From: Isurus oxyrinchus
Lineage: Eukaryota
Direction of reading: 5' to 3'
Assembly: GCA_026770705.1 (NCBI GenBank)
Contig: JANJGN010000012.1
Location: 108,810,001 to 108,874,000 of the forward strand
DNA length: 64,000 bases
Shown: positions 1 to 64,000 of the stretch, in pieces
Layout of the letters: each line of letters starts with the position of its first letter
Numbering within the stretch: the stretch's first letter is position 1
Program-made: the position numbers and the translations under genes
Notes under the pieces: model-generated
Database searches by the model: none
What the model saw: only the letters and a program-made list of their open reading frames with translations
Told to the model about the DNA's origin: nothing

Positions 1-321
1 TAACACCTATGTGTTCTTTTGTACCATTGTCGCTGACATCTTTTGATGATCTGTTTCTATCACTGCTTGTTTGTCTACACAAGCACCTCTCTCTCTCTCT
101 CTCTATCTCTCCGCCCCCCCCCCCCCCACACACACCTTAAACCAGCTTATATTTCAACTCTTTCTTGGACTCGAAATCAAGTTCTGTCGAAGGGTCATGA
201 GGACTCGAAACGTCAACTCTTTTCTTCTCCGCCGATGCTGCCAGACCTGCTGAGTTTTTCCAGGTAATTCTGTTTTTGTTTTGGATTTCCAGCATCCGCA
301 GTTTTGTTTTGTCTTTATCTC
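1..321 (+). mobile_element. Penelope-like element (PLE) 3' UTR/pLTR fragment, truncated by the window start
   Basis: Near-identical to 35660-35970 and to both arms at 45945-46323; contains a hammerhead motif; ends in the same tail (...ggatttccagcatccgcagttttgttttgtctttatctc). Confidence 0.85.
180..218 (+). ncRNA. Minimal type I hammerhead ribozyme motif (CUGUCGA core variant)
   Basis: AGTT-CTGTCGA-A-GGGTC-atgag-GACTC-GAAA-C-GTC-AACT: stem I AGTT/AACT, stem II GGGTC/GACTC, palindromic ACGT in place of stem III. Confidence 0.7.
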
Positions 322-10125: not shown

Positions 10126-11312
10126 TCTCAGCCATGGCTCAATGGATAGTACTTGGCCTAAATAGCCAAGTGGTTATGGTACTGGGTTTGTAACCCCAAG
10201 ATCGAGAGTTCAGATCTCACAATGGCAAACTATGAAACAATGTAACTTCATCTGAAACAGATGGAAACGGGTTTGTGCTCAAAAGAGTATCAAGAGTTCA
10301 AATCTCACAATGGCAAACTATGAAACAATGTAACTTCATCTGAAACAGATGGAAACGGATTTGTACTCAAAAGAGTTCCACATTCTTTGGCTTGACTTGA
10401 ATAGCCAAGTGGTTATGGTACTGGGTTTGTAACCCCAAGATCAAGAGTTCAAATCTCACAATGGCAAACTATGAAACAATGTAACTTCATCTGAAACAGA
10501 TGGAAACGGATTTGTACTCAAAAGAGTTCCACATTCTTTGGCTTGACTTGAATAGCCAAGTGGTTATGGTACTGGGTTTGTAACCCCAAGATCAAGAGTT
10601 CAAATCTCACAATGGCAAAACTATGAAACAATGTAACTTCATCTGAAACAGATGGAAACGGGTTTGTGCTCGAAAGAGTATCAAGAGTTCAAATCTCACA
10701 ATGGCAAACTATGCAACAATGTAACTTCATCTGAAACAGATGGAAACGGGTTTGTGCTCGAAAGCGTATCAAGAGTTCCAATCTCACCACGGCAAAACTA
10801 TCAAGAGTTCAAATCTCACAATGGCAAACTATGAAACAATGTAACTTCATCTGAAACAGATGGAAACGTGTTTGTACTCGAAAGAGTTACTTTCATCTGA
10901 GTCAGGAGGTTTTGGGTTCAAGTCCTACTTCTGCACAAAAATCAAGGCTGACCCACCAGTACAGTACTAAAGGGTGCTGCATTGTCAAAGATGCCATCTG
11001 TTAGATGAGACATTAAACCTCGGCCCCAACTGTCCTGTTAGGTAGACTTAAAATATCCCATGGCACTGTTTCGAAGAAACGTAGGAGAATTATCCCCAGT
11101 GTTCTGGCTAATATTTATCCCCCAAGTAACATCGCAAAAACAGATTATCTGGTCATTATCACATTGCTGTTTGCGTGAGCTAGTTGTTGCAAATTGGCTG
11201 CTGAGTTTCCTATAACACATCAGTGTCGACACTTCAAACGTACTTATTTGGCTGTAAAGCACTTTGGGACATCCTAAAGTTAAGAAAAGTGCCACATAAA
11301 TGCATGTTCTTT
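10126..11312 (+). mobile_element. DeuSINE (SacSINE1/AmnSINE-like) interrupted at 10155-10888
   Basis: tRNA-like head split by the insertion (tagtactt|tcatctgagtcaggaggttttgggttcaagtcc); Deu-like core gtgctgcattgtcaaagatgccatctgttagatgagacattaaac...tcccatggcactg; tail ...ataaatgcatgttctttt. Confidence 0.75.
10155..10888 (+). repeat. Modular tandem array of a tRNA-Thr(TGT)-derived unit (39-, 88- and 24-bp modules; 151-bp full unit)
   Basis: Order A-B-B-C-A-B-C-A-B-B-b-B; A box TAGCCAAGTGG, loop TT-TGT-AA, B box GTTCAAATC; flanked by (T)ACTT on both sides. Confidence 0.9.
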
Positions 11313-13090: not shown

Positions 13091-16000
13091 CTAAAATGAA
13101 GAGAAATATACGAAAATAACTATTTTATCGGAACTGCTTTATATTCTTTTAAAGTGGATGAATTTCTTTTCTACAATGTTCTGCACATTATGTTAAGCAG
13201 ATTGTGCAAGGCCTTACTGTTGGCATGGAGCCTCACTCAATATGACCATGGGTCAGAGATAGGGCTACAGAGCATTGTAGGTCTGTGTTCCACACTCATG
13301 TTTATCAAGGCTCCTAGCTAGAAATTTCAGAGCTCCCATTTTCGGGTGCTCCCTCCAAGGAGTGAACTTACCCTGCGTACAAGTGGCGAGCTCTGAGGAG
13401 CCTTGTATATTGTCTCTCTTACCTCATTGCCATGCTAATGGCACCATGGGAGGAGCTCCATACAGCTAAGTACAGAAAATTCCGGCCTCAGCTATCTCAA
13501 AGGTTAAATGATGATCTTGGGGATCCAGTCAGAAGTATGTGCATGCTTCACGCCCGACATTTTGGTGAATTAGGAGGCTGCTAGGTGCCTGAAAAATGGA
13601 TACAACATGATGCAATTCCTCGACCTTCCCATCAGTGGTAGGACCTTGCAAGTCTGTCCTTGTATAAATATGTATTAAAATAAATGCCTGTGAAGTATTT
13701 AAACCATAATTATCATGGCTGCTAATGGTGTTTTTGTCTAAAAAGCACTTTTTTTGTTGTCCATGTTAAAGATTGGGTGCCCAGATAAGAAATGCTCCTG
13801 ACAACAAACATAAAGTATTGAGAGCTGTTGAAATTTATTAATAAGATTTGATTACAAATATATTTGTGCAGATGCTGTTTAACAATTGGAAATGCTTGTA
13901 ATGGAAAATTCCATCTGCTGATATACAGATCAGAGGAAATTAATGTTTTCAGTTGACTGTATAACAGTTCGGCGAAAGAAAATCACATTTGAAAGATATT
14001 AGGCATCTCAGTGATCCATGGATGCAGAAAAAATGTGAAAACTGAGTAGGTCAAAGATTGTAATGATAAAGTACTGAGTGTAGTTAAGAGCTGGAGCACT
14101 ATTGGTAAAGACTCAGCTTTCAGGCTAGAAGCCTGAAGGTCACACCAATGTCACAACAACACTTAACTACCAAAAGTACACAATTTGTTCACCAATAATA
14201 CAAGGTAGACAGACCTGAGAACTATGCAGATAAAACAAAAACTTTCAGGAATCAGCAAAATTTCTTTATTTTTCCAGTTGCAGTTCAAAATACTTTCATT
14301 GCAAAGTCCAGATTGAAATGTTAGTGCCAGTAAAATGGCTTTAGCTTGTTTTGTTTTTTGATCAATGCAGCTTACATTAAAAAAAACATTGTCAATATTA
14401 GCATGTCTCACGCAAGGTATTTGGCACAGGAGCATGTTCATAGCTTCTTCCACTTAGCTGAAGGAAAGCTGGTCCACCCACTAATGCAGATGGTTATTTC
14501 TTTAAATTACAAATTTTTGATGAGCTTATAAATTAAAAGAAATCGGATTAACATTTTTAGCAGGCGATTCACCCCAAGATGTAACTGGACCAGATAAAAT
14601 ATATAAAGCTTTTGAACAGTGTAATCTATGATGCATTTGATGCTGACTATTCAATTACCTAAAGATTAACAGTGCTATGCTGCTGCTACAAAAATATTTT
14701 TTAAATATACAATGATGAGCTCTTTATAACAAGCTTTACATGCTGCAGGGAAAAGTAGAGATAAATAAACTTGTGAATGGGCAAATGTTTAGTTTGTCCT
14801 TGCGATTTGGCTGAACTGCAACACAGCCAGGCATCCACAGTCAGTTTCAGAGTTCTGCTCATTCTTAAGAAAAATGGTTTTCATTAAGTAAAATTGAAAT
14901 TTTTTAAAAATGTCATAAACTTTGTCTAAGATTATGTGCTGCTAGCTTGCTAAGTTATGTTGGTGAAAAAATGCTCAATTGGTTGCTTCTCATCATTTGG
15001 TAACCTTTCTGGTTATTTGATTGATCACTGCTAACCATGAATAGGGGATCATTTTATATCATTTTATATATAGTACAGAAAGCTAATTTGAAATCAAACC
15101 CTTTTGCTCAACCAGACACTGTTACACTCCGTATCCAAAAGCTGCTCTTCCTGCTTTTGAAGAAAAATATAACAGCAACATAACTGCTAATCTTTAAATG
15201 TTTGCTGTTAGGTTGGGTGAACACATCACTTTTACAGCCCAAAAGTTTGGAGAAAGGGAAAAAACACAAGTAAGTAAAAGATTTGAAGTTTGGAAAAATT
15301 CTAAAACAAAAGGTTGGGGTAGAGTTTAGTAAATAAAAATGTCAAAGTTAAAAGTTTGTAAAAAAGAAACTGAAGAAGAAAAAGAGAATTTGAGGCAAAA
15401 GGGAGGTCACTGGGCAAGAACTGGTGAAGAATTAATTCTTATGGAAGATTGTGCTGCGGGCTCCATTTTTGTTGCCGTGTTATTATTACATTAATAAAGC
15501 TATTCCAAACAGATGAAAATCTTTATTGCTAAAACATTACTGTTCATTTCAGTGTTGTAATGCCTGAGTTGTACCAGGGAGGTTGCAATTGCCCTGAACT
15601 TAGCTAAATGTTAAAATTACTATTGACTAACATTCTGGTCTGAAGTGAAATTTGGCTCTGTAATATTGCTGTGGATTACTAATGTACACACATCTAGAAC
15701 ATACCTCTAAAATTCCTTTGTTCACTATTTCAACATGGCCATTAATTAATTTATTCAAGCAGATTAATGCCTCCTCTAAATTAGAGAAGGGAATTTTAGA
15801 TACATCTATTACGCATTTGCATACTTATTGCATGTCCTATTACAGGGCTGTTGTGTCTGAATAATTTAAACATTATTTTCTGTTAAATAATATCAATGAC
15901 AAGTTAAACATTTGCATAAAAACATAAAACACTTAGTCACAGCCACATAATCTAACTAAAGATTTAACAAAAGACTTTCATGTTTCCGCCATAAGCTGTT

Positions 16001-17536: not shown

Positions 17537-20116
17537 CTACAATGTTAAACACCAGTAAGTGCTTGCACACAGTATGTTAACATTTTAAAACCAATAAAAT
17601 GACTTTACATGAGAAACCTACCAAGGCCTATTCTAGGCAGGCTGTTACCAACTAGCAGGAGGGAATCATTTTTTGTTAGTACATTTAGAGAAAAGAGTTG
17701 AATTTATATATTGCCTTTTATATCTCATAGCATTTCAAGGTTTGTTACACAATGGATTATTTTGGAATGTTGTGACTGATACTTGGACAACTCCACAACT
17801 AAACGGGATAGGGAGGGGACGTGATTTTCAAGTTGTCTGTTTCTTGCCTGAAGGACAGGTGACCAGTGAAAGAAAACTTTAGAAATTCCTGAACACCCAG
17901 ATAACTATTTTGGAGGGAATTTTTGAGAGACCTGGAGAAGCAGGATCATACTGCCAGCAAAACCCCACCCCTCCCCCCTCCACTCCCTCCACTTCCCCCC
18001 AACCACCCAACTGCCCCAACAAGCCCAGCCTATCAGCTGGGTCCACGGTGAAGCTGACCATTTTTCCAAAGCCAGCAAGTGAAGTGCAGTGAAGTGCCCG
18101 TTTGTTCCTGCAGTCTGCCAGTTAGATTCAAATGAGTTCCAAACATGAAAATAGTCAGGCATCCCTGACACACACTGGCTACGCACTCATTCTGGGCTAA
18201 AACTAAAAAAATATATACCCCACCACCCCCTACAATCCCCACATCTCAGTTCAGCATTTGATTTAAAGGATAGTAATCCAACAATGTAATACCCTCAATG
18301 GAGTGTCAGTCATACTCTGATTTTGGAGTTAGGCTCAAACCCAAAGCATTCTAACATAAGGGCAGGAGTTTTACAAAATTAGTGATGAGCTTTTTCTGGC
18401 CTTGAGCTTTCTTTGGTAAGGAAAGCTCACGAGTTAGTTCTTCCAATTTTTGCAAATCCACTCACTCCTGATTGGCTTCTGCCAACACCATTTTCCTGTT
18501 GAAAAATCCTTGAGGCTCAATGTCCACGTATAAGTTGAATAAGCCCTTTTACATCATGATATTTACAATGCCAAAATACCGAAGACTATCTTTATCCACC
18601 AGGCAAAGGTATGTTTTGGTTTTCCCCCAAAAGATTTAAATGCTCTTATGTCTGTTATCTATTAAAACAATTAGCTTCCACAACAATTACAGAAAAAACC
18701 CCTAGTATTTCTTAAGTATTTAAATTTATTATTTCTGTTAATTGCCTTTGCATTAAATTGATGTAATGTAATTCAGAATCTTTGTTAATTAATAGGCATT
18801 GCGCTCCACTAAAGTTGTAGTTTTATTGCACACAGTAAATCTCAGAAACATGTGATCAGATTACAACCTGCAGCATGCCAAGCACAGCCTGTAGGTGGGA
18901 GAGCAGGAACAAGGACAGGGCTGTCTAATAAATAACTACTCACGACAATAGTCAACTACTTCGCTTCCAGAACAGCATGCAGGGCCTCATTAATGAGTAA
19001 AACAAAACTGGTTGTAACTTTGTTTTTATACAAAATAGGAAGTTTTTGAAACCTTATAGTTAATTAATACCAATGAAACAATGAATGGTCTAAAGAAACA
19101 CTTTTTTGACAGCGTGCGCAGCATTGGCTAGATCAACTGGAACCTATAAAACCAGAATAACTGAATACAAAATAAATGACATTGACCTCTGAGATTAGAA
19201 ATGATCACAAAAGTTCATAATGGATTGAGAAAAGTCTTCAAATGTGCAAAGCTTTGCTGTAGCTACTTTTACATAATGCCAAGAGAAGAAAAATTCCACA
19301 TTTGAAACTTGTATCCCCAAGCGCAAACATATTTTTCAAAGACCAGGGGCGCAATATTAATCCCTATGCACCCCTCCCTCACCCCATCACCCCCACCAAG
19401 TTAGATATGGGGAATGTGATCCTAACATGCTAATCACTTTGCTTTTTTAGTGGTGGTAATATCGGGGTACCTCAGTGTCCAGCTGTGGAATGGTGGGACA
19501 TTGAATCAACATTTCTAAAGCAAACTTCAACAGTATAACCCAGGGGTTGGGGAACTGGTTGGGGTTGAGTGCTGCAGGCTCCACCAAAGAATTGCCTTTT
19601 GCATTATCTGTTGGCCAGGAAGAGAGGGAGTACCCTCTCCAGGATACTCAGGGAGTCTTAGGCTGCCACCCAGCCCCGATTGTGGGCTCTCTTCCATCCC
19701 CCCATGTAGGTTTCTCTTCCTGCCCCATTTCTACAGATGTAGTCTCCCCTCTCTGGTATTCATTTGCACAGGGGCTGGCTGGTAAATGGGCTAAAATTTT
19801 TAGTAAGATCTGTGCCGTTAAGTTAGGCACCCCTGTTGAGCGTGCCAGAAGCGAAAATTGCGCTCGCTAAAATCAGGCAAATATCGAGGAACCGCAAACT
19901 TTGCATGCTGCTTGCTTCAACAGGGCCGGCTGCAGGTGGATCACAATCCCCACACCCCCCAAAACAGGTGCAAACCAATTATTAGCCCCTTTTAATAAAG
20001 AGCTTTGACAATAAATGATTTTGGCATCGAACATCACAGGTTACATAGACGGGGCAAGATTTTTCTTATTGAGAGGGAAAGATTCATCTGGGGGGGATTT
20101 TCCCAACCAGGACTAA

Positions 20117-20278
20117 GGCCAGAATTTTCCAGCACACCCGTGCCCCCCCAGCCACGGCCCCCCCCCCTCCCCACCCCACCCCAAACGCGGCAGGTTCCTT
20201 GGCAGCAAGGCCAACAAGCCATTGAAATCTATGTTTCCATCCATTCCGCCGGCATGGGGAGGCTGGAAAATTCTGGTC
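20117..20278. mobile_element. 162-bp Tourist/Harbinger-type MITE
   Basis: 17-bp TIRs ggccagaattttccagc / gctggaaaattctggtc with one mismatch; TAA TSD at 20114-20116 and 20279-20281. Confidence 0.88.
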
Positions 20279-22983
20279 TAAGTCTCTTGACGGGGGTGGG
20301 GAGGAAGGTGGGGAGTGTTTTCTGCTGCGGAGGCTACTGGGAATTCACGTGGTATCGTGTGACCACAGCCACATTAATTATGCAGTTGGGATTTTCCCAA
20401 TGTATTGTGTGGTGGGGCGGGCTGAATGGCGCACTCCCCGCCATCATATTCGGATGCCATATGTAAAAGGTGCCCAGACAGCAACTTACTAACAATGCTA
20501 ATTGAGGTGGCAAGAAGAGGACTGGAACCTCCGGCGCTAAGGCTGACTTAGCATGTTCCTCGACCAGGTGGAGGCCAGGAGGGATATGCTGTAGCCAGCT
20601 GATGGGAGAAGGAGGCTAAGCAGGGAGACCAACTCTGCATGGGAGCAGGATGCCACCACAGTCAGTACCCAGGGCCTCCAGCACAGGTCAGACCTCTAAT
20701 GGTGGAAGAGGATGAATGACCTCATCCGTGCAGCCAGGGTAAGTGAACCCACAGTCGCTCACATTAACCACAATGAATGGTAGAGAGGACATGGGTTCTG
20801 TGGCAGCACCATCAGGTCATGCTTCGTAACCCCACTGAAGTCCATCCACTCTGCAGGTGGAGAGGCCACTATGTGTCCCTCACCCTTCCACACAGAGAGC
20901 TCACAATGCAGTCTGGTAGGGAGGGGAGGGGGAAGTCAGGATATGGAGCTCAGGCATTGAGGGCACCAGCAAGCTCTGCAAATGACATGGCTCTCTGAAG
21001 CTCCTTGAGGGGAAGGGGCATCAGGAGGGAGATCGAGGTGCTCCACCCGCCTATCACATAGCCACGGCAGAAGCTCCGCTATGGCTCCCGCAGTGGAGTG
21101 CAGGTCTGCACACATCTTCAGCAGAATCTCCTGGACTAGGATCCACGGAGCCTGCCATCCTCCCCATGGAGACCTTGATGTGTGCACGTCAGCACCACTT
21201 CATCAGCCAGCAGGCCGTCAGCCTCCTCCACCTTGTGTGCCATCCATTGAGGACACCTGACATATCTACCTGATGTTCCCTCACCTCTTGCTGACTCTCC
21301 AGCATCATTTGGGAGGCCAATTCCAGAGGCCCGTCATCAGACTCGCACCTCGCAGATGCCTCTTCCCCAAACGTTGGCCCACAGCAGGACAGCCAAAATA
21401 AGCTGGGGCCTTCCAGGCCTCAGGTCTCCAGAGAACGGCCGCCAAGGTTATCCAAGACAACAGGGCCAACTGGTCAGCAGGCTGCCTCTACCCATGCTGC
21501 GGAATTCAGGGGAGCACTTAGAAGAAATGGTAGGGAGAGGAAAATTAAGAAATACTGAAATCACAATTGGTTGCACAAGTGCACTATTGAATGTCACAGA
21601 TAGCAAACTTTTGTATATATGTTGACTTTTACTTTAATCACATCCAATGTGTAGTTTAAGCTATAATCCTTAAGTCTGAGTGCTCCCCACCGTATCCTTG
21701 CATATTGATGGGCTCACCGCTCTGGAGGGTGGTGGCCTGAACCCTTCTGGACAACCTGCAGTACATTAATGAGATACCACACAATCCAGTGAGTTATCTC
21801 TAAGACTGGAAGCATGAGAAAGATACGTGAAATTGTTAGATGTAATCGGATGCTAAATACAATTCCTTCCAACCCTATCTTCTCTGTGCTCTTTGAGCTG
21901 GGCAAGTTAAGCCATAACCGGCGAGGGAGGGAGAAAACAGAAGGAGGTCGGTCACACACGAAAGAAGTGACAGAGTTCGAGAAGCAGGCAGCCCAGCTGG
22001 CAGGGCTAGGGCGGGTCCGGCCATTGGAGATGAAGAGACTGGATTTGGGCCTCCAACCAGGAAGAATAAATGCATGTCATAGAAACCACAGGGCCAAGGG
22101 TGCCTCCATGTTAGAGGCAGCTCATGCTGTCACTCACTCTCTCCTCTCTCAGTTATGCCTGCCGCCAGGAAGAAGGCAGGAAGCTCCGACACAAGCCCAA
22201 ATCCGGAGAAGAGCGAGGACATCATAGAAACCGTAGAGGCATCACGACAGACACCTCTACCCTCCACCAGCCCAGGGACACACACCTCGGTGGGTATTAG
22301 CTCTAATGTAAGAAGGGTCTCAGACCCTGGTGGTCACCACATAGACACGCGTCCGCAGCAGGAGGAGGCAGGATCAACCAAGATCATCGGTATTTGCCAG
22401 GACCCTTGCGAGCCTTATGCAAGTAGTCTCCAGTGCAAACTGAGCCTTTGGCCTTCAGGCTCCCAAGGCCCTAGCATTGCGAAGGCTACATGCTGGTGTT
22501 CCCCTTCAGTTGTCCAGTTGAAATGACCTGCATCGTTGCCCATCCCCGATGAACCAATTCGCATGCTCCCCATAGTTGCGACCAGTTGAGCCATAGTGAT
22601 AGTGATCTTCTATCTTCACTCCAACACCTTTTCCCTTCATTCAGTCACCACACTCTCCTCCCCATAACCATTGGCCCCCTGGTATAATGGCCAGAATTTT
22701 CTGTTTGACGGGCGGGCGGGCCCAACTGACTCAGCAGCAGGCAGGCAGCCGATTGCCGCCGCCGAAACGGGCTGCGCCGCCATTTTCCGTGGGCGAGCCA
22801 ATTAAGGCGGGTTAGCGACTCCCGTGGAGAACGGGAAAATAGTCACGGGGCGGGCGGCTTCAGACTGTCGGTTCCAATGGGGAGCCGGCAGCCTGTATAA
22901 AGAGTGGCCAGGCAGCCTGCTTGCAGCAGTGCACCATAGCCACTCGGAGAGAGAGGAAGGGAGCTGTGGTTTCAGAGGAACTT

Positions 22984-24515
22984 GAGCAGGAGGATGGGGG
23001 CAGGCTACAGGAGAGGCCAGCAGGGGGCCACTGTGCCCCTCGATTCTCCGATGCAAGCGTTGCTGTCCTCCTCCAAGTGGTTTCCAGCCGTCGGCATGTG
23101 TTGTATCTGGAGGATGGGAGGATGAAGGCCCCCCCCCCTGTCACCAGCCAGGCGTGGGAAGAGGTTGGTGATGCTGTGAGTGCCCATGAAGATGTGCGGC
23201 GCACTGGCACCCAGTGCAGAAAAAGATTCTATGATTTGCTGCGCTCTGGAAGGGTGAGTTCCATGTCGGCCTTGGGCATTTGACCCAGAAGATAGCCTTA
23301 GCTTTTGAGCACACCCCACTCCCCCCACCATGTCTTGCTGTCATTACTGCATTGGGCATTTGGTGCACACTGGGTGGGCAACGGGTACTGACCATGCTTA
23401 CATCAGCCTTAGTGGTTGAGGAGAAGATGGGTTCTCCCCGCAGCATATGTTGGTGTTTGTGGCATTTGAGTAGTCTGGGGGCAACCTGCAGGGGAGGCAG
23501 CTAGACACATACTCAGAACTCCAACACATTGTCATATTGATGGTGATGAGATGGTAGAAGGGGAGCCTCAAGGTGTTTTGGCCAAATGCCATCTGCTGAC
23601 ATCGGCGCCGCACCTAGTTGTGCCTCGTTGCCATGGACGCTAAGACCCGTGTGTTATTCAAATTGATGGACGACGAATGTGTCCAAGGCGGCCATTGGGA
23701 GAGGGGGTTGGGAGCAGCTGTACTATCTTCTGGGGACTGATCACCAGCAGTGTCGACAGGTGCCGCTGGAGGCCTCAGATCAGCCACTGTGGATGGAGTG
23801 CGGTGTGCGCGTGCAGAGTACATGAGCGATCAGCCTCAATAAATGGTCTCTGTTCTGCAGGCAAAAAGTCAACACAATATGCAGGAGCACCAGAGGACTG
23901 GAGGTGCAAGTGGCAGGAAGCGCGTTTGCATCTGGCTGGGTTGCATGAGGGTGTGCTTCAGTTGGTCTCTCCAGTGGAGGAGTCCAGGCAGAGTGCACGT
24001 GAAGGCATGAACGGCATGAACCTCAGGGCAAAGCTTCACACTTCCCTCTACTGAGAGATTGGTGACTCTCATGGAGAGGGGGTTCAATCGGATGGAAAAT
24101 CTTCTGATTGGGTTACGCTCTGACCTGCAAGCCCTCAGTGGTAATAACCACGGGTGGTCATTCCCAATGTGGGAGATGTTATGGGCACCAAGCGTCAGCG
24201 CTCGGTTCCCCTGCATCTGTGTTGAGCAGGGAGGTCGAAAGGGACCTCACGACGCAGCAGGTGCCTGTCGTCGCTGCCAGTTCTTCTCAGGGCACTCTGG
24301 ATGAGGGCAGCAGCTCCTCCGCCCCTCTGCCAGTCAGCGTTGCTTCCGTTGAGGCTGCGACAACTGGGGAGGTGCCAGTTCAGGCCAGAGGACGCCCGCC
24401 AAGGTCACTGGTGCCAACAGGACAGCAGAGTCAGCAGGCTGTCTCACAAGCCACTCTGACCTATGGGGCAGCACCTAGACGTAGCACCCGAAAACGTACG
24501 CATAAGGCACGTTAG
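22984..24515 (+). pseudogene. Harbinger Myb/SANT-like DNA-binding protein gene (disrupted)
   Basis: PRFSD...AWEEV...RTGTQCRKRFYDL; donor after 23253 (gtgagt), acceptor before 23861 (ctgcag) continuing AKSQHNMQEHQRTGG; basic C-terminus RRSTRKRTHKAR; frameshifts in between. Confidence 0.82.
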
Positions 24516-31112: not shown

Positions 31113-31525
31113 TATGTTCTTTTCACAGAACAATATTGACCATCCAGACTTCTAACCACAATTCTATCGCACCAGGAGACATCGATACTACCATCACTGT
31201 AGCAGTCACCAACACAAAGACTGAACCACCTAGACCCCCACAACCTTTGAGCATAGAAACACTGCCAGAGCATGAAGAAGGTACAACCTCCACTAGTTGA
31301 TGGTGGTTTGGTAAGGCCAATTAGCAGTTGATGGTTGTAAGTGTGAATATGGTAGGTAGAGTTCAGTAGTCTGACTTCAAACTGAAGTTAATAGAATATC
31401 ATTGTCACCTACACACAATGAATGGGAGCAAGGTTGGGCAAGATAGAGAATTCTGTATCAGAAAGGTCCATGTGATTTGGACACTGATCTGGGCAGACTC
31501 TGGGTGCACAATATGGTAAAATGAA

Positions 31526-31743
31526 CCAAAAACAAAAATAGCTGGAAAAACTCAGCAGGTCCGACAGCATCTGCGGAGAGGAAGACAGTTAATGTTTCGA
31601 GTCCGTATGACTTTGAGTTCTAATGGAGAGTCATACGGACTTGAAACGTTAACAGTCTTCCTCTCTGGATCTGCTGAGTTTTTCCAGCTATTTTTGTTCT
31701 TGTTTCAGATTTCCAGCATCCACAGTATTTTGCTTTTATCTTA
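31526..31743. mobile_element. Small palindromic PLE-derived insertion (older subfamily)
   Basis: Inverted arms about ~31613-31628; 13-bp TSD atggtaaaatgaa at 31513-31525 and 31744-31756; hammerhead stem II gagtc-atacg-gactt-gaaac-gtt. Confidence 0.8.
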
Positions 31744-32884
31744 ATGGTAAAATGAATGACCCACTGCTGCCAGGTCTGAGGAAAGGTTACTGATCTCTAA
31801 CCAAGTGACTATTCAGCCTCCTTCGTAAAAGGGCTGGGATAACAAATTTTTTTTAAAAAACGTAACATTTTTCTTTAGGACATGATCCAGCCCTTCTTTC
31901 ACAGAGCAGACCGGCTTCTAAAGATCCACTGGGCCTCGAGGGATGTAGGATCTCACAGGTTGGGGGACTCCAGCCTTAGTCTGACTACCTCCACACTAAT
32001 GGCCTTGTTTGGGGCTTTTGGGAGGACCAACCCCATTAAAGAGTTAGAGGAAACCCCTGGGCAAGGCCAAGTTTGACACATCAGAGTTCCAATCTAGATT
32101 GTGGCACTTCTACTGTATATTCACTTGAGTTACGGCAGGAAGACATCAACAGAGCCATGGATCTTTGGTCTCAGTATATAAATAGGGTTAATGGGAAATC
32201 AAACAGGTTTCCAAATCCTACTGTAAAAGCTCCAGCAGCTGCACCTTTCAGACCTGATCTGTATATCTCAAACCACAGTGGGGAGTTTTTACTTACCCGA
32301 CCTGCAGGGAACTGGTTGGTGAAAAAGTCTTGGGGAGCCCCCAATTTGGGATTCCCTTGCACGTCATGGATGTCTTTAACCCAAAGCGTGTCAGTGAGTT
32401 GCTGATCAGTTCCCTGACCAGAGGCCAGACTGATTGTGGAGAGGAGTGGGACGTTCCCCATGCTGCGGAGACAAGGCTGACAAGTTGCAAAGCTGAATTA
32501 CAATCAGGTTCACATTATCACGTTAACTTCCAATCTGCCTCCTTGGAGCGGGTTGGCTGCCCAGGCTTAGTTAAAGCTGGAAGGAGATGGGTTGGAGAAA
32601 GATTTGTGTTGGGAATTATATTTTTCAGAACTTAAACCCACCCAACCCAAAACCCAACCCTTTGTGTAGGTTAAATTCAGCCCATAGACCTCTATAGTTT
32701 GGTTCTCAACAAACCAAGTTCAGCAGTTATTGAGAAGGATTCAATATCTTGTTAACTATTTAATTTTCTAAACTTATGCCACAGTCATTTGCCCCTCCTG
32801 GAAAAAATATTAAAAACTATTTTAGTAGGTTGATTGGATTTGACAGGGCAGTCACTCAGCAACATTGTTGTAAAAGTTTGACTT

Positions 32885-33758: not shown

Positions 33759-34958
33759 CTAGAAATAAGTAACAGGAAACAAGTTAGGCGTCCCTTGCAT
33801 TGGCTGCCTATAATCAGATTTATTCCCATCAATGGTAACACAGCCATGACCTTAAGATCTAACCTGAATGATAAAATCTAGGAATATATCTGAACAACTG
33901 AGGCAAGAAGTGTTTTTCAAAGGTTGAAGAATGTCTGTGTGTGTACCCCTGACTAACTCACCCCCTCACTCTTATTATACTTGGGCTTTCAGTCCACACT
34001 GATACATTTGACAGTAATGTTGGCATTCTGGAGGGATGAAATCAAATGGGCCAAAGATCTTTTTTCATTCTTTCATGATGGAATTGCTGACTAGGCCAGC
34101 ATTTATTCTCCATCCCTAATTGCCCTTGAGAAGGCGGTGGTGAGCTGCCTACTTGAATTGCTGCAATTTAAAAAATTATAGAGGAGATTATTCAATCCAT
34201 TTTCCTGCACCTGCTTTCTAAAAGAGCTCTCCTGTTAATGCCATTCCTGTGGACTTTCCCCAAACTCTTTTACAGTTCACTTTTTACAAATATTTATCCA
34301 TTTCCTTTTTAAACATTATTATGGATTCACTACAGAAGTGTCTCTAATAGGACATTGTATGTCCCCACAATCCTCTGTACAAAAAAGAAATGGTCCTAAC
34401 CTCTCTTAAGAATCCAACCATTTGTCTTTGACATTCAGTGGCACTGCTGAATCCTCCACTATCAGCATCCTGGGAATTACCATTGACTATTAAATGAACT
34501 GGGCCAGCCATATAAATACTGTGGCTACAAGAGCAGGTGAGAGGCTGGGAATTCTGCAGAGAGTAGCTCATCTCCTGATTCCCCAAAGCCTGACCACCAC
34601 ATACAAGTCAGGAATGTGATAGAATACTCTCCACTCACTTGGATGAGTGCAGTCCAGCAACACTCAAGAAGCTTGAAGCCATCAAGCAGCTTGCTTGATT
34701 AGCACCCCATCCATCACCTTCAACATCCATTCCCTCCATCACCAATGCACAGTGGCAGCAGTGTGTACCATCTGCAAGATGAACTGCAGCAACTAACCTA
34801 GGCTCCTTTGACAGCATCTTCCAAACCCATGACCTCTACAACACCACCACCTGAAAGTTCCGCTCCAAGCCACAACCATCCTCACTAGGAACTAAAACAA
34901 AAAACAGAATTACCTGGAAAAACTCAGCAGGTCTGGCAGCATCGGCGGAGAAGAAAAG

Positions 34959-34997
34959 AGTTGACGTTTCGAGTCCTCATGACCCTTCGACAGAACT
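34959..34997 (-). ncRNA. Minimal hammerhead motif (CUGUCGA variant)
   Basis: Exact reverse complement of 180-218. Confidence 0.7.
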
Positions 34998-35833
34998 TGA
35001 TTTCGAGTCCAGGAAAGAGTTGAAATATAAGCTGGTTTAAGGTGTGTGTGTGGGGGGGGGGAGGAGAGAGAGAGAGAGACAGAGGTGATTGTGTAGACAA
35101 ACAAGCAGTGATAGAAGCAGATCATCAAAAGATGTCAGTAACAATGGTACAGAAGAACACATAGGTGTTAAAGTTAAAGTTGGTGATATTATCTAAACGA
35201 ATGTGCTAATTAAGAATGGATGGTAGGGCACTCAAGGTACAGCTCTAGTGGGGGTGGGGGGAGCATAAAAGATTTTAAAATATTTAAAAATAATGGAGAT
35301 AGGTGGGAAAAGAAAAATCTATAAAATTTATAGGGAAAGAAAAAGGGGGAAAAAAGGGGGAAACAGAAAGGGGGTGGGGATGGGGGAGGGAGCTCACGAC
35401 CTAAAGTTATTGAATTCAATAACTTTAGGTCGTGAGCTCCCTCCCCCATCCCCACCCCCTTTCTGTTTCCCCCTTTTTTCCCCCTTTTTTTTTTCCCTAT
35501 AAATTTTATAGATTTTTCTTTTCCCACCTATCTCCATTATTTTTAAATATTTTAAAATCTTTTATGCTCCCCCCACCCCCACTAGAGCTGTACCTTGAGT
35601 GCCCTACCATCCATTCTTAATTAGCACATTCGTTTAGATAATATCACCAACTTTAACTTTAACACCTATGTGTTCTTCTGTACCATTGTTACTGACATCT
35701 TTTGATGATCTGCTTCTATCACTGCTTGTTTGTCTACACAAGCACCTCTGTCTCTCTCTCTCTCTCCTCCCCCCCCCCCACACACACACCTTAAACCAGC
35801 TTATATTTCAACTCTTTCCTGGACTCGAAATCA

Positions 35834-35872
35834 AGTTCTGTCGAAGGGTCATGAGGACTCGAAACGTCAACT
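35834..35872 (+). ncRNA. Minimal hammerhead motif (CUGUCGA variant)
   Basis: Identical to 180-218. Confidence 0.7.
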
Positions 35873-36572
35873 CTTTTCTTCTCCGCCGATGCTGCCAGAC
35901 CTGCTGAGTTTTTCCAGGTAATTCTGTTTTTTGTTTTGGATTTCCAGCATCCGCAGTTTTCTTTGTTTTCAACTCACTAGGAACTATATCACTGTGCCTT
36001 CAACGTCGCTGGTCAAAATCCAGGAACTCCCTTCCTAACAGCACTGTGTGTGTCCCTACAACACATGGACTGCAGTGGTTCAAGAAGACAGCTCTCCACC
36101 ACCTTTCCAAGGGGACTTAGGGATGGGCAATAAATGCTGGCCTAGCCAGTGATGCCCACTTCCCATTAAAGAATAAGAACAACTCACTCCTAATCCTTTT
36201 TTTGATCATTTTAAACTCATATTCTTACTGATCAGTGGAACTCACTTTGAGCTATCCATTGTTGGATGAACACTTAACTAATAGGCTGCTAACATGAATC
36301 CTATATTTCTATAAACCAGGCCAAAATCAGTTACTAACTGAATGTATTGGAAAATCTTGAATTTAAAGCATTAGAAAATTAAAGCATCATATGGTAAATG
36401 AATTAATCAACATCAGGGCAAACTATAAATGGGAAAAGATTTCCAGAACATTGATTTTGAAAAATGCTGTGTTTTCACATTCAAGCAATGAAGCAAACAA
36501 CATTTTTTACACAAGTGTAAGCAGACACCCAAGTACATTTTAAACAAGTATACTACTCAGAAATCCTTCTAC

Positions 36573-40436: not shown

Positions 40437-41384
40437 AAGTTCTTCACATATGTAAAGGTTCATATCATATTTGTTTCACTTGATCATGTGCATTTTTTAG
40501 TATGTATGAATTCAGACGGAATATTGTACTATCATGTTTCATGGTTGGCAATCATTGATAAATGAAAGCTACTGAGAGAAATCTCACATGTAGTGGCAAC
40601 ATTGTCGCAATGTGTTCACATTCAGTGTTTATTGCATGGTCAAATGTGCAACTTCATTTGTATTCTCAAGGCATTGCAATATGACTGAATATGCTACCTG
40701 TGGTGGTCCTTCCAAATATGCCGTGCTAAGGAGAGTGGCTGAAGTTACTTGCTGCTATGATAAGATATGTGCTGTTTGTGTACTCATGGCCATGTCACTG
40801 TGGGCAAGGATCAAGAAACTCACTCATAATAGCTTCAGTGACTTACTTGCAAGTGCAAAACCTACATCCTGGAGTCAGTCTTATCTTTTGATTTTGTGCA
40901 ATAAACATCCACTTCCCTTGACTTTTTAGGGGGTAGAGGACAAGGGTAGTGAGGTAGCTCTTGGTGGAGGGTGACAGAGATGGATGCACATTCAAAGCAT
41001 GCAATGATTTGCAGACCATGTACTGCTGATCAGGTAGGTGCCTCATTCCTGTACAAATCAATTAAATAAGAGCAGATCTCTGATAGCACTGGCACTTCTC
41101 TCCATTGCCCTGGCACCTTGGAAAGGGTGATTTCTTGAGCCTCTTCCTCATATTTCTCTCTGTTATCCCCATCTGAGGAGGAGAGCAGCTCCTCCATGTC
41201 CTTGTCCGGTAATTCCTCTCCTCATTGCAATGCCACATTGTGCAACACACAGCAGACCACGACAATTCTGGATACGCTAGGTCTGCAGCACGTATTGCAA
41301 TGCTCCGCTAGATTGTGCAGGCAGCAGAAGCACATTTTCAGCAAGCCAATGGTCTGCTCTACAATTGTTCTGGTCAGGAGCTGA

Positions 41385-42637
41385 GTGGTCTGCCAAGGCC
41401 ACTCAGCTCCTGACCTCATTACAGCCTTGGTTCAAACATGGGCAAAAGAGCTGAGCTCCAGAAGGGTCATGAGAATGACTGCCCTTGACATCAAGGCCGA
41501 TTTTGACCAAGTGTTGCATCAAGGAGCCCTATCAAAACTGGAGCCAATGGGAATCAGGGGAAAGCTCTCTGCTGGTTGGAGTCATACATACACAAAAGAA
41601 GATGGTTGTGGTTGTTGGAGGTCAATCATCTCAGTTCCAGGATATCACTGCTGGAGTTCCTCAGGGTAGTGTCCTAGGCCCAACCATCTTCAGCTGCTTC
41701 ATCAATGATCTTCCTTCCATCATAAGGTTAGAAGTGGGGAAGTTCACTGATGATTGCAGAATGTTCAGAACCATTTGTGACTTGTCAGATACTGAAGCAG
41801 TCCCATGTCTAAATACAGCAAGACTTGGACAATATCCAGGCTTGGACTGACAAGTGGCAAATAACATTCACACCACACAAGTGACAGGCAATGACCATCT
41901 TCAACAAGAGAGAATCTAACCATCGCTCCTTGACATTCAATGGCATTGTCATCCCTGAATCCCTCACTATCAACATCCTCGGGATTACAGTTGACCATAA
42001 ACTGAACTAGACTAGCCATATAAATACTGTGGCTACAAGAGCTGGTCAGAGACTAGGAATCCTGCAGCGAGTAACTCACCTCCTGACTCCCCAAAGCTTG
42101 TCCACCATCTACAAGGCACAAGTCAGGAATATGATGGAATACTCTCCACTGACCTGGATGAGTGCAGCTCCAAAATCACTAAGAAGCTTGACAGCATCCA
42201 GGACAAAGCAGCCAGCTTGATTGGCACCCCATCCACAAAGATTCACTGCATCCAGCACTGTCGCACAGTTACAGCAGTGTGTACCATCTACAAGATGCAG
42301 TTCAGCAACTCATCAGACTCCTTAGACAGCACCTTCCAAACCCACGACAGCTACCATCTAGGACAAGGGCAGCAGACACATGGGAACAACACCACGTGGA
42401 AGTTCCTCTCCAAGCCATTCACTATCTTGACTTGGAAATATATCACCTTTCCTTTACTGTCACTGGGTCAAAATCCTGGAACTCCCTTCATAACAGCACT
42501 GTGAGTGTACCTACACCAAATGGACTGCAGCCGTTCAAGAAGGCAGCTCACCACCATCTTCTCAAGGGCAACTAGGGATGGACAATAAATGCTGGCCCAA
42601 CCAGCAATGCCACATCCAATGAATGAATAAAAGAAAA
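41385..42637 (+). mobile_element. LINE family B (CR1/L2 group), RT to 3' end
   Basis: RT motifs ALDIKADFD, GVPQGSVLGPTIFSCFINDL, FTDD; IYKAQVRNMMEYSP. Confidence 0.9.
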
Positions 42638-43995: not shown

Positions 43996-46047
43996 CTGTC
44001 AATGTGTAGAGATATAAAAATCCTGAAATGAATATAGTTTGGAAGCTAGGACATTCTAGACCACTCTACTAATGGGCATCAACATCACCTTGTGCTAACC
44101 TGATAGAAAGCATGAATTCAACAAGCACAATAGGCAGGCCCATTAATCGTTGCTCTTCTGGCTGGGCTTCAAATACCACCAAGCCCAAAACATATTAAGC
44201 AATCTCCTGCAATCTGGAATGTGTGTGCCCATAAAAAATAAACCCACTTATCAGTCTGAGCTAGCTTCTGCGTATCTGCAATACATAAAAGATGAAGGGA
44301 CACCATTAATCGCCCTTCATGCAAACATAAACGTCACCAAATAAAGAAATAAATGGATATATCAGCAGTATTTACTGTGATTTTACAAGCCTCCAAAGTA
44401 CTGACTTTATTATTTGGTAGTTAGAATTATAGAATGATACAACACAGGAGGAGGCCATTCAGCTCATTATGCCTGCGGCAGATTTTGGTAGAGCTTTCCC
44501 TCAACCCTGCTCTTTCTGCATGGCCTTGAATATTTTTCCTTCAAATATTTACCCAATTCTCTTTTGAATGTTACTATTGAATTGGCTTTCACCACATTTT
44601 CAAGCAGTGCATTCCAGATCACAGCAAATCGCTGTGTAAAAAAATGCTTCCTCATGGTTCTTTTGCTCATTAATTGTGTGTCCTCTGGTTACTGGAAACC
44701 ATTTCTCCTTCTTTATTCCTATCAAAAATGTTCATGAATTTGAGCACCTCAGATTAACTCTTAACCTTCTTTGCTATAAGGATAATAAACACAGCTTCTC
44801 CAATCTCTCCACATAACTGAAATCCCTCATCTCTGGTACCATTCCAGTAAATCTTTCTTGTACCCTTGGCAGGTCCTTGACATCCTTCCTAAAGTGTGGT
44901 GCCCAGAAATGAACATAAAACTCCAAAAGAGACTAAACAGTTATTTCATAAATGTTTAGCATAGCTTCCTTGCTTTTGTACTCTATTCCTCTAGTAATAA
45001 AACCAAGGATCTATAGGCTATTTCTGGCAGCCTTCTCACCTTGTCCTGCCATCTTCAAAGATTTGTGTACATATATCCCTAAGACCACTTTGTTCTTGCG
45101 CCCCCTTTAACATCGTACCATTTAGTTTATATTGCTTCTCCTCATTCTTCCTACCAAAATGCAACACTTCACATTTCCCAGTGTTAAATTTCATCTGCTT
45201 TGTCTGCTATCTGCTATCCATTTCACCAATTTATGTCCTTCCATAGTCCTTTACTATCTTACAGATAGATTTTTGGTCTCTCAGGGAATGAGCAGGGAGG
45301 TGGAACTGATCAAGCCCAAGATTAGCTATAATCATACTGAATGGCAGAGCAGGCTTGACAGACCATATGGTCTACTCCTGCGCCTACTTCTTGTGCTCTT
45401 GTGTTCCTCATCACTTATTACATTTCCCACTCACAAGGAAAAAACATTCAGACCATCGCTCTTATTTCCCAGTTTTTACTGGTCTTCTGTTTTAAGTTAT
45501 ACAAGACCAGTTCAGACCAGTATTATTTCCCTTTTTTTACTGTTTTTTTCATTCTGGGCAGTTTTGTATCATTTGCAAATTTTTGAAATTATGCTATGAA
45601 AACCCAGTCTAAGCCATTAATAAATAGCAAAGAGATCAGTGGTCCTTCCGATTCCTGGGGAACATCACTGTATATTTCCCTGCAGTCTTGAAAACAATTG
45701 TTCAGCACTGCTCTTTTTTCTGTCCCTTAGCCAATTTTGTACTCCTGCAGCCATTGTCCCTTTAATCCCATGGACTTTCATTGTACTAATAAGTCTATGC
45801 TGTGGTACGTTGTCAAAGTGCCTCAAACGCCTTTTGAAAGTGCATATAGACAACGTGAACCACATGATGTTCATCAACCTTTCCACCACTTCACCAAAGA
45901 ACATAATCAAGGTAGTCAAACATGATTAGACTTTAATAAAACCAGAGATAAAAACAAGACAAAACTGCGGATGCTGGAAATCCAAAACAAAAACAGAATT
46001 ACCTGGAAAAACTCAGCAGGTCTGGCAGCATCGGCGGAGAAGAAAAG

Positions 46048-46086
46048 AGTTGACGTTTCGAGTCCTCATGACCCTTCGACAGAACT
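46048..46086 (-). ncRNA. Minimal hammerhead motif (CUGUCGA variant)
   Basis: Exact reverse complement of 180-218. Confidence 0.7.
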
Positions 46087-46223
46087 TGATTTCGAGTCCA
46101 AGAAAGAGTTGAAATATAAGCTGGTTTAAGGTGTGTGTGTGGGGCGGAGAGATAGGGACTCTCCGCCCCACACACACACCTTAAACCAGCTTATATTTCA
46201 ACTCTTTCTTGGACTCGAAATCA

Positions 46224-46262
46224 AGTTCTGTCGAAGGGTCATGAGGACTCGAAACGTCAACT
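46224..46262 (+). ncRNA. Minimal hammerhead motif (CUGUCGA variant)
   Basis: Identical to 180-218. Confidence 0.7.
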
Positions 46263-46419
46263 CTTTTCTTCTCCGCCGATGCTGCCAGACCTGCTGAGTT
46301 TTTCCAGGTAATTCTGTTTTTGTTTTAATAAAACCATGCTGGCTTTCATTTCTTAGCTAATACATTTCTAAATGACAATTAATTTTGTTCCCAATTTTTG
46401 GCTCTAAAAAGATTGTGCA

Positions 46420-61914: not shown

Positions 61915-62590
61915 TGTAGAAACATAGAAACATCGAAACTAGGAGCAGGAGTAGGCCATTCAGCCCTTCAAGCCTACTCTGCCATTCATCATAATCATGG
62001 CTGATCATCCAACTCAATAGCCTGCTCCCACTTTCTCCCCATGTCCTTTGATCCCTTTCACCCCAAGGGCTATATCTAACTCCTTCTTGAAAACATACAA
62101 CATTTTGGCCTCTACTACTTTCTGTGGTAATGAATTCCACAGGCTCAACACTCTCTGGGTAAAGAAATTTCTCATCACAGTCCTAAATGGACTACTCTGT
62201 ATCCTCAGACTGTGATCCCTGGTTCTAGACCTCCCCACCATTGGGTACATCCTTCCTGCATCTACCCTGTATAGTCCTGTTAGAATTTTATAGGTTTCTA
62301 TGAGATCCTCCCTCATTCTTCTGAACTCCAGTGAATATAATCCTAACTGACTCAATCTCTCCTCATATGTCAGTCCCGTCATCCCAGGAATCAGTCTGGT
62401 AAATCTTCGCTGCATTCCCTCTATAGCAAGAACATCCTTCCTCAGATAAGGAGACCAAAACTGCACACAATATTCCAGGTGTGGTCTCACAATCACTGGT
62501 TCCCCCTCATCAACTCTACTAGTTACATCCTCAAAAAATTCCAGTAGATTTGTCAAGCATGATTTCCCTTTTGTAAATCCATGCAGACTC
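61915..62590 (-). mobile_element. CR1 LINE with an internal deletion
   Basis: ORF 62014-62556 TNLLEFFEDVTSRVDEGEPV|IVRPHLEYCVQFWSP; TTTCTATG-type tail repeats at 61915-61940. Confidence 0.9.
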
Positions 62591-62904
62591 TGCTAAATAA
62601 GAGCTACAACACTATAACCCAATTTCCCACCCATTTCCACAGCCAGCAAGGCTTCATCTGGCACTAGGACTTTGCAAAATGACCATACATATATGCAAGT
62701 CCAGCATATTTTAGACACTTTGTTATAGATGCAAAACAATCTTTTTTAAAAAAAGTCAGTCAGTATCTCCTGCTAGAGAAACAGTTAGCCTTTAAGTTAT
62801 CTCAAGACATGCCCAATGCAGCAATTAGGCTATGTTCCAATGGTTATATACAGCTGTACCATGGTAACAGCATGATGCTCCTATCTTTATAAAACAGTGT
62901 ATTA

Positions 62905-63473: not shown

Positions 63474-64000
63474 CGATGTAGAGGAAACCACCATTGGGGA
63501 GACCATACACAGACTGGGTGTGACTGCTTTGCAGAACACCTCCAGTCTGTCCACAAGCATGATCCAGACCTCCCGGTCACTTGCCATTTTAACAGGCTAT
63601 CCTGCTCTCATGGCCACATGTCCGTCCTTGGCCTGCTGCAATGTTCCAGTGAAGCGCAACACAAACTGGAGGAAGAGCACCTCATCTTCCGACTAAGCAT
63701 TTTACAGCCTTCCAGACTTAACATTGAGTTCAACAATTTTAGACCATGAACTCTCTCCTCCATCCTCACCCCCTTTTTTATCCCCTTTTTTTCTACATTC
63801 ATTTTTACTTTTGATCCACTTATTTTTATTTTCATTTGTATTCATTCATCCCATTGTTGTATCCCCTTTTTTATCCCCCTTCTATTCCATTTTCTATCCT
63901 TTTTTCCCCACCACTGCCCCTCCCCCATCAGATCCCCAAAACGGCCATCTGTCACTTATTCCATGGTGTTCCTTCACACAATGCCACCCTTGTTCTGCTA
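63474..64000 (+). mobile_element. Penelope-like element: GIY-YIG endonuclease C-part and 3' UTR
   Basis: IGETIHRLG then (frameshift) DCFAEHL...LPVTCHFN...HKLEEEHLIFRL...PSRLNIEFNNF; UTR similar to 35415-35480. Confidence 0.88.

Follow-up and report, generated by a model that had tools for sequence, protein, structure and literature searches.

Truncated, tailed copies in inverted orientation have been reported as a typical feature of Penelope-like elements (PLEs) (PMC8557442). Insertions of endonuclease-bearing (EN+) PLEs combine a head-to-head inverted copy, a one-sided tail of 30-40 nt, a target-site duplication (TSD) and a palindrome at the junction (Arkhipova et al. 2013, PMC3846280; Craig et al. 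2021, PMC8557442), and both the junction palindromes of head-to-head copies and a self-priming proposal for them have already been published (PMC3846280). In the rotifer element Pen2a the inverted pseudo-LTR (pLTR) and its direct counterpart share a 15-bp overlap, and the pLTRs of Pen2 and Pen3a start with 18- and 38-bp palindromes, respectively (PMC3846280). For an anole PLE, Poseidon PAc, both target strands were cut and extended in vitro, two internal starts of reverse transcription (RT) set the tail and a dimer was predicted; the later steps, including the joining of the cDNAs, are left unvalidated there (Frangieh et al. 2024, PMC11167929). Pairs of hammerhead motifs on opposite strands, 100-700 bp apart, have been linked to truncated PLEs (Cervera and De la Pena 2014, PMC4209133).

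An insertion of this general pattern was examined in a stretch of 64,000 nucleotides of Isurus oxyrinchus DNA, referred to here as the window. The palindrome of about 1 kb at 34895-35972 was confirmed as a real feature of this locus and has the following parts.

34600..36180, + strand: host repeat interrupted by the insertion, a LINE-type 3' end (four uninterrupted paralogues in the window)
34881..34894, + strand: left TSD, 14 bp, its last A possibly common to the element end (alignment, empty-site comparison)
34895..35414, - strand: left arm, inverted tail-less PLE 3' end (arm-to-arm alignment)
34959..34997, - strand: minimal hammerhead-like motif of the left arm (motif scan)
35409..35420, no strand assigned: self-complementary 12-mer ATTGAATTCAAT, which holds the axis and reads I-E-F-N (alignment, translation, symmetry count)
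35409..35435, + strand: final 8 codons of the PLE ORF with its stop, IEFNNFRS-stop (translation; homologous ends in relatives)
35415..35937, + strand: right arm, with the end of the PLE ORF and its 3' UTR/pseudo-LTR (alignment)
35834..35872, + strand: minimal hammerhead-like motif, core CUGUCGA...GAAAC-GUC (motif scan; helix II recovered in folding)
35938..35972, + strand: one-sided 35-nt tail (alignment; two loose-end peaks in reads)
35973..35986, + strand: right TSD, 14 bp (alignment, empty-site comparison)

Alignment of the left arm with the reverse complement of the right arm gave 519 matched columns, two substitutions (at 35088 and 35339) and two one-base gaps, which fall in homopolymer runs (G and A). 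Around the centre, 75+75 nt pair perfectly, and the axis falls at 35414/35415 (GAA/TTC) with no spacer. Arms of ~520 bp with few substitutions and differences in homopolymer length, and a zero-spacer axis at GAA/TTC, had been put forward in a preliminary description of this DNA, and the alignment agrees on both points. As the arms differ by just 2 substitutions in 521, the palindrome suggests a recent insertion, i.e. one that is simply young. The tail extends the right arm only, the left arm being without one.

The TSD, CTCACTAGGAACTA, is present exactly twice in the window (34881-34894 and 35973-35986). When the left and right flanks were aligned separately to the four paralogous empty copies of the host repeat, they overlapped by exactly 14 nt in every case, indicating that the 14-bp TSD, as first proposed, is a true duplication and that nothing was lost at the target. 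The host repeat, which we take to be CR1/L2, has an RVT_1 remnant upstream of one of its paralogues. The unique right flank (36137-36400) was found in contigs of two organisms with 0 and 5 differences, and hence an orthologous site exists in the relative.

The flanks also bear on whether the palindrome is a fold-back artefact of sequencing or assembly. Library fold-backs favour small native palindromes, which speaks for such an origin, as does the failure to see a spanning read among reads aligned to 35400-36400, where the low-complexity stretch on the axis side was skipped. However, a read-level fold-back would mirror the flank and not resume the host repeat in register, whereas the two flanks of this insertion differ and are in register, with the 14-nt overlap, with all four empty paralogues. 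The one-sided tail, the differences between the arms, the same layout in an old, decayed hairpin (copy D, below) and opposite-strand joints of the family in all four sequencing runs aligned likewise speak against an artefact, which is considered very improbable.

Each arm carries the putative last endonuclease codons, the 3' UTR and the minimal hammerhead motif of a PLE, which on the + strand of the right arm are ordered as IEFNNFRS-stop, a pyrimidine-rich UTR and the hammerhead-like motif. A PLE fragment at 63.5-63.75 kb belongs to a different subfamily and is 69-78% identical around the stop. Its 77-aa frame had no match in Pfam and retrieved 143 relatives. Relatives of the fragment terminate in G[LM]N-x-[ED]-F-like words. 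Among 20 relatives scanned, GIY-YIG matches were obtained for seven (all weak and below the Pfam cut-off) and RT matches for three (P0086 and P0140, both weak, and P0005, which is apparently chimeric with a LINE RT). A Cys linker (CX2-5CxxC) is visible in P0086, P0140, P0015 and P0025; the window copy stops short of the linker. Such a linker between RT and EN is assigned to Neptune and Nematis in PMC8557442. The parent was probably an endonuclease-bearing, Neptune-like PLE. The ORF-end codons and the relatives with GIY-YIG or RT matches support the PLE origin given in the preliminary description; the inverted arm with tail and TSD is likewise supported, and the hammerhead motifs were overlooked there.

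Hammerhead motif matches were found at five places in the window by motif scan, all in arms of the young subfamily and with 4/4 pairs in stem I. Their activity is uncertain because U replaces A at core position 6. An Rfam search of the window reported no hammerhead; its 76 matches all scored below the gathering score, were mostly generic miRNA hairpins and were rejected. When folded, the hammerhead and tail regions did no better than shuffles (z 1.1 and -0.9). The insertion has no coding capacity and is probably a dead end.

Other copies of the family lie in the same window.

1..320, + strand: copy C, same subfamily; arm and tail, cut by the window edge (alignments)
31513..31756, no strand assigned: hairpin D, older, of a related subfamily; arms of ~90-100 bp with ~85-88% complementarity around a ~16-nt loop, right arm tailed, TSD of 13 bp (alignments)
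45932..46336, no strand assigned: hairpin B, of the focal subfamily; arms of 168 bp with 100% complementarity around a 7-nt loop, left arm tailed, TSD of 13 bp (alignments)
63483..64000, + strand: copy E, other subfamily, a 5'-truncated PLE with the putative endonuclease C-terminus, cut by the window edge (translation, alignments)

The focal copy, B and D are complete hairpins. Their TSDs of 14, 13 and 13 bp have the variable length of EN+ PLE insertions, and each shows a one-sided tail and an adjacent inverted, 5'-truncated head-to-head copy. In all three, the ends of the two arms lie about 0-16 nt apart, with an offset of 12-16 nt where the arms of D abut. B and D fold 350-430 nt nearer the 3' end than the focal copy and do so with little or no microhomology, that at the fold of B amounting to about 1 nt at most. 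The 7-nt loop of B matches native sequence at 6/7 positions, and the loop is templated by the longer, tail-bearing arm in both looped copies.

Several unrelated features were recorded elsewhere in the window. A GC-rich segment at 22843-23280 (+ strand) has a frame that matches Pfam Myb_DNA-bind_5 above the cut-off (28.3 bits) and ends near a likely splice donor; it is probably the remnant of a Harbinger-type transposon or else an MSANTD-like exon. A young compound tandem repeat occupies 10201-10832 (periods 88, 151 and 32 bp; 88-98% match). Short inverted repeats (34 bp, 82%; 25 bp, 80%) surround a GC-rich stretch at 20111-20317, possibly a small DNA-transposon remnant, and 20-bp arms that are 95% complementary around a 4-nt loop lie at 41372-41415. 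LINE reverse-transcriptase remnants were seen at 41479-41847 (a weak RVT_1 match) and at 62014-62592, where the frame is open on the minus strand and is assumed by us to be CR1-like.

The state of the family as a whole was read from raw sequencing data. Reads from 4 of 24 listed runs were aligned to the right half of the insertion (35400-36400), the low-complexity stretch by the axis being skipped and having zero depth. Two raw WGS runs from a related organism showed a depth near the 3' end of ~44,000 in 1,887 Mb, i.e. roughly 23,000 arm copies per Gb, dropping to ~8,000 at 35604-35637 (about 4,300 per Gb). Most arms of the family are therefore short or diverged further up, and an arm of 521 bp is among the long ones. 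Behind 35931 and 35960, loose ends stood at 15,012:17,013 in run X19 and 14,491:16,070 in run X23, a near 1:1 ratio of tail and tail-less ends. The 35931 peak adjoins a T-run difference of one base, and clipped reads may contribute to it. Near-equal peaks are as expected if most insertions carry one end of each type.

The five opposite-strand joints listed, to which 551 further joints are additional, fall at 35834-35843 with 18-135 reads each. These were not adopted as exact axes, since older subfamilies also stop aligning there (4,153 and 4,608 loose ends). The base that most reads carry at 35830 gives the family a small inverted repeat of its own at 35827-35838, at hammerhead stem I and by the strongest of the listed joints; it is only a lead, either a candidate second hot spot for joining or an effect of clipping.

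The copies and the read depth together bear on the idea of a non-autonomous hairpin element, spreading ready-made in the manner of a MITE or retrozyme. The insertion is non-coding, hammerhead-bearing and highly abundant, as such a unit would be, and retrozymes have been proposed as PLE derivatives (10.64898/2026.07.22.740005). Against this, no two of the three complete copies agree in axis or arm length, and the fall in depth away from the 3' end resembles variable 5' truncation. Retrozymes are, moreover, described as tandem direct arrays in the same source; no tandem array of the unit, the mark of a non-LTR retrozyme, was present in the window, where the copies are inverted pairs of differing lengths. 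Spread as a unit is thus rated as quite improbable. A MITE or foldback DNA transposon was rejected, the termini being asymmetric (i.e. bearing a tail at one end) and the axes differing in 3/3 copies.

The position of the focal axis was analysed with respect to the end of the PLE ORF. A self-complementary word had been reported at the axis with a length of 10 nt; the word is present, with a length of 12 nt. In local alignment, homology to the PLE fragment begins at 63723, equivalent to 35409, six bases to the left of the axis. These six bases match the paralogue at 5/6 positions (GAA against GAG in the paralogue) and give I-E when read in frame; that ~75%-identical paralogue is the sole source for the upstream bases native to this subfamily. 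The match of the axis to the IEFNNF end at 63723-63740, as initially drawn, is accordingly right about where homology starts, but the fragment is of a different subfamily and its own word at 63.7 kb, ATTGAGTTCAAC, pairs at just 4/6 positions.

The symmetry of the 12-mer is partly circular, the left half being the mirror of the right half by construction; its first rank among 505 arm windows for self-pairing is circular for this reason and was set aside as evidence of preference. Symmetry of at least 5/6 pairs was found at 338 of the 63,989 positions in the window and at 7 of the 541 in the arm (about 0.5-1.3%), and the chance of such an axis placement is a few percent, with three hairpins examined. 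Together with the 5/6 match to the paralogue, these counts support a non-chance position of the axis on the I-E-F-N word in this copy, and the axis probably formed on a native 12-nt palindrome at the ORF end. Because such symmetry is rare, joining through ATTGAATTCAAT is plausible for this copy. The proposal that folding at the ORF-end word is a rule of the family was not sustained, with one of the three complete hairpins in the window conforming.

The reading that we favour, at slightly less than even confidence, is of a young non-coding insertion in which two head-to-head PLE 3' ends within a 14-bp TSD arose in one event, both cut strands being extended from one RNA and the cDNA ends being joined via the 12-mer. 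The element endonuclease would nick both strands 14 bp apart, as the TSD implies, and each 3' end would prime reverse transcription at one of two internal starts ~35 nt apart, so that one arm has the tail and the other lacks it. Priming of both strands leads by geometry to a head-to-head product with one tail. Both cDNAs would then stop at about the same place, most simply at one broken RNA end. At this locus they would have stopped within ATTGAATTCAAT, such that the ends could anneal and prime each other, leaving no spacer; elsewhere the ends would be joined with a short templated loop, as seen in B and D.

Equal arm lengths call for coupling, i.e. one RNA end for both cDNAs or one cDNA that copies itself. 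A single template is favoured by the arms of B, which differ at 0/168 positions, by variants shared between the two focal arms and not found in B or C, and by a C at 35532 that is common to both focal arms although 97-99% of family reads have T; in the two young hairpins the arms are closer to each other than to other copies. Predicted pairing leans towards two cDNAs, with -11.3 kcal/mol for two 12-mer ends versus -0.3 kcal/mol for a snap-back hairpin. Twin priming through the 12-mer is weakened by the use of such a word in only 1/3 hairpins, by the absence of a detectable inverted arm upstream of copy E, and by the loop bias (2/2), which fits a fold-back equally well.

In the second form of coupling, a single cDNA begun at the tail start would fold back or switch template at the 12-mer and copy itself, after which the second target strand would prime on the copy at the tail-less site. 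Identical arms of equal length are directly accounted for, the loops supplied by the tail-bearing arm in B and D are a weak lean in the same direction, and self-priming is the published proposal for PLE junction palindromes (PMC3846280). Yet the intramolecular hairpin would be worth so little at the 12-mer, B has almost no microhomology to fold on, and the in-vitro system extends both strands from start sites on the RNA (PMC11167929). A fold-back is judged the less likely form of coupling.

A third route starts from the fact that a palindromic word, once carried by both arms of an inverted pair, doubles as a direct repeat, so that a centre could be deleted between two 12-mers. A longer inverted structure reaching into the ORF would have lost its centre in this way, which predicts exactly the observed axis; microhomology-mediated deletions have been reported in Penelope copies (PMC3846280), and long inverted repeats are fragile (PMC7999016). 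Two substitutions in 521 leave little time for such a deletion, however, its product is a perfect palindrome with a stability no better than that of the precursor, and B and D reached near-zero spacers without any such word. Deletion of the centre is regarded as improbable. The preliminary description had named two routes, two cDNAs and one fold-back, both of which are retained as readings, and had missed this third one.

The favoured reading, twin priming on one RNA, can be extended from this copy to the family. Native micro-palindromes (the ORF-end 12-mer and possibly GAACT-CA-AGTTC at stem I) would then be recurrent hot spots for joining, and a symmetric hairpin would be the usual PLE product in this lineage, with both strands primed on one RNA and running off the same end. 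This extension is speculative and its truth doubtful. If true, the genome holds thousands of tolerated near-perfect palindromes, the centres of which record the second-strand or joining step of PLE transposition.

The focal copy by itself is one data point of a described pattern and is of modest value on PLE end-joining. The wider value comes from the family. The joining of two new strands during PLE integration is the step still unvalidated in PMC11167929, and the abundance of the arms (given above), their equal lengths and their readable centres make it testable from assemblies alone, through the arm that supplies the loop, the covariation of arm lengths and any preference of axes for native palindromes. 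Long spacer-less palindromes are described as the most fragile kind (PMC7999016); because such fragility is expected at this size, the age profile of these palindromes would measure the rate of removal in this genome.

A literature search found no paper on shark PLE hairpins, and subscription journals, Repbase, supplements or figures may show such elements. Pattern searches of metagenome contigs gave 0 matches, and a single pattern match in a viral contig (L001) lacked any PLE context when inspected and was put down to chance.

Set beside the known systems, the animal non-LTR retrozymes (10.64898/2026.07.22.740005) resemble this insertion in being non-coding, hammerhead-bearing and PLE-derived, and differ in having a fixed unit in tandem direct arrays, where the present copies are inverted pairs of varying length. 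The minimal type I hammerheads without helix III of metazoan PLEs (PMC4209133) are matched here, although the two motifs are about 840 bp apart and core position 6 in this subfamily has U in place of A. With anole PAc the insertion has in common a hammerhead upstream of the RT starts and, on the favoured reading, two such starts that define the tail and the cutting and extension of both strands; the relatives of the window PLE fragment carry a Neptune/Nematis-type linker as against the Poseidon layout of PAc, and the available sections of PMC11167929 contain no discussion of inverted products or cDNA joining. From the EN+ PLE insertions, whose layout it shares, this copy differs in that both arms are truncated at the same point with nothing between them and 8 codons left, and in an arm length of 521 bp versus about 180-220 bp in the rotifer examples (PMC3846280, PMC8557442). 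The insertion is a long, clean example of a PLE insertion pattern already described, and what is less ordinary about it is the arm length, the zero spacer and the legible junction.
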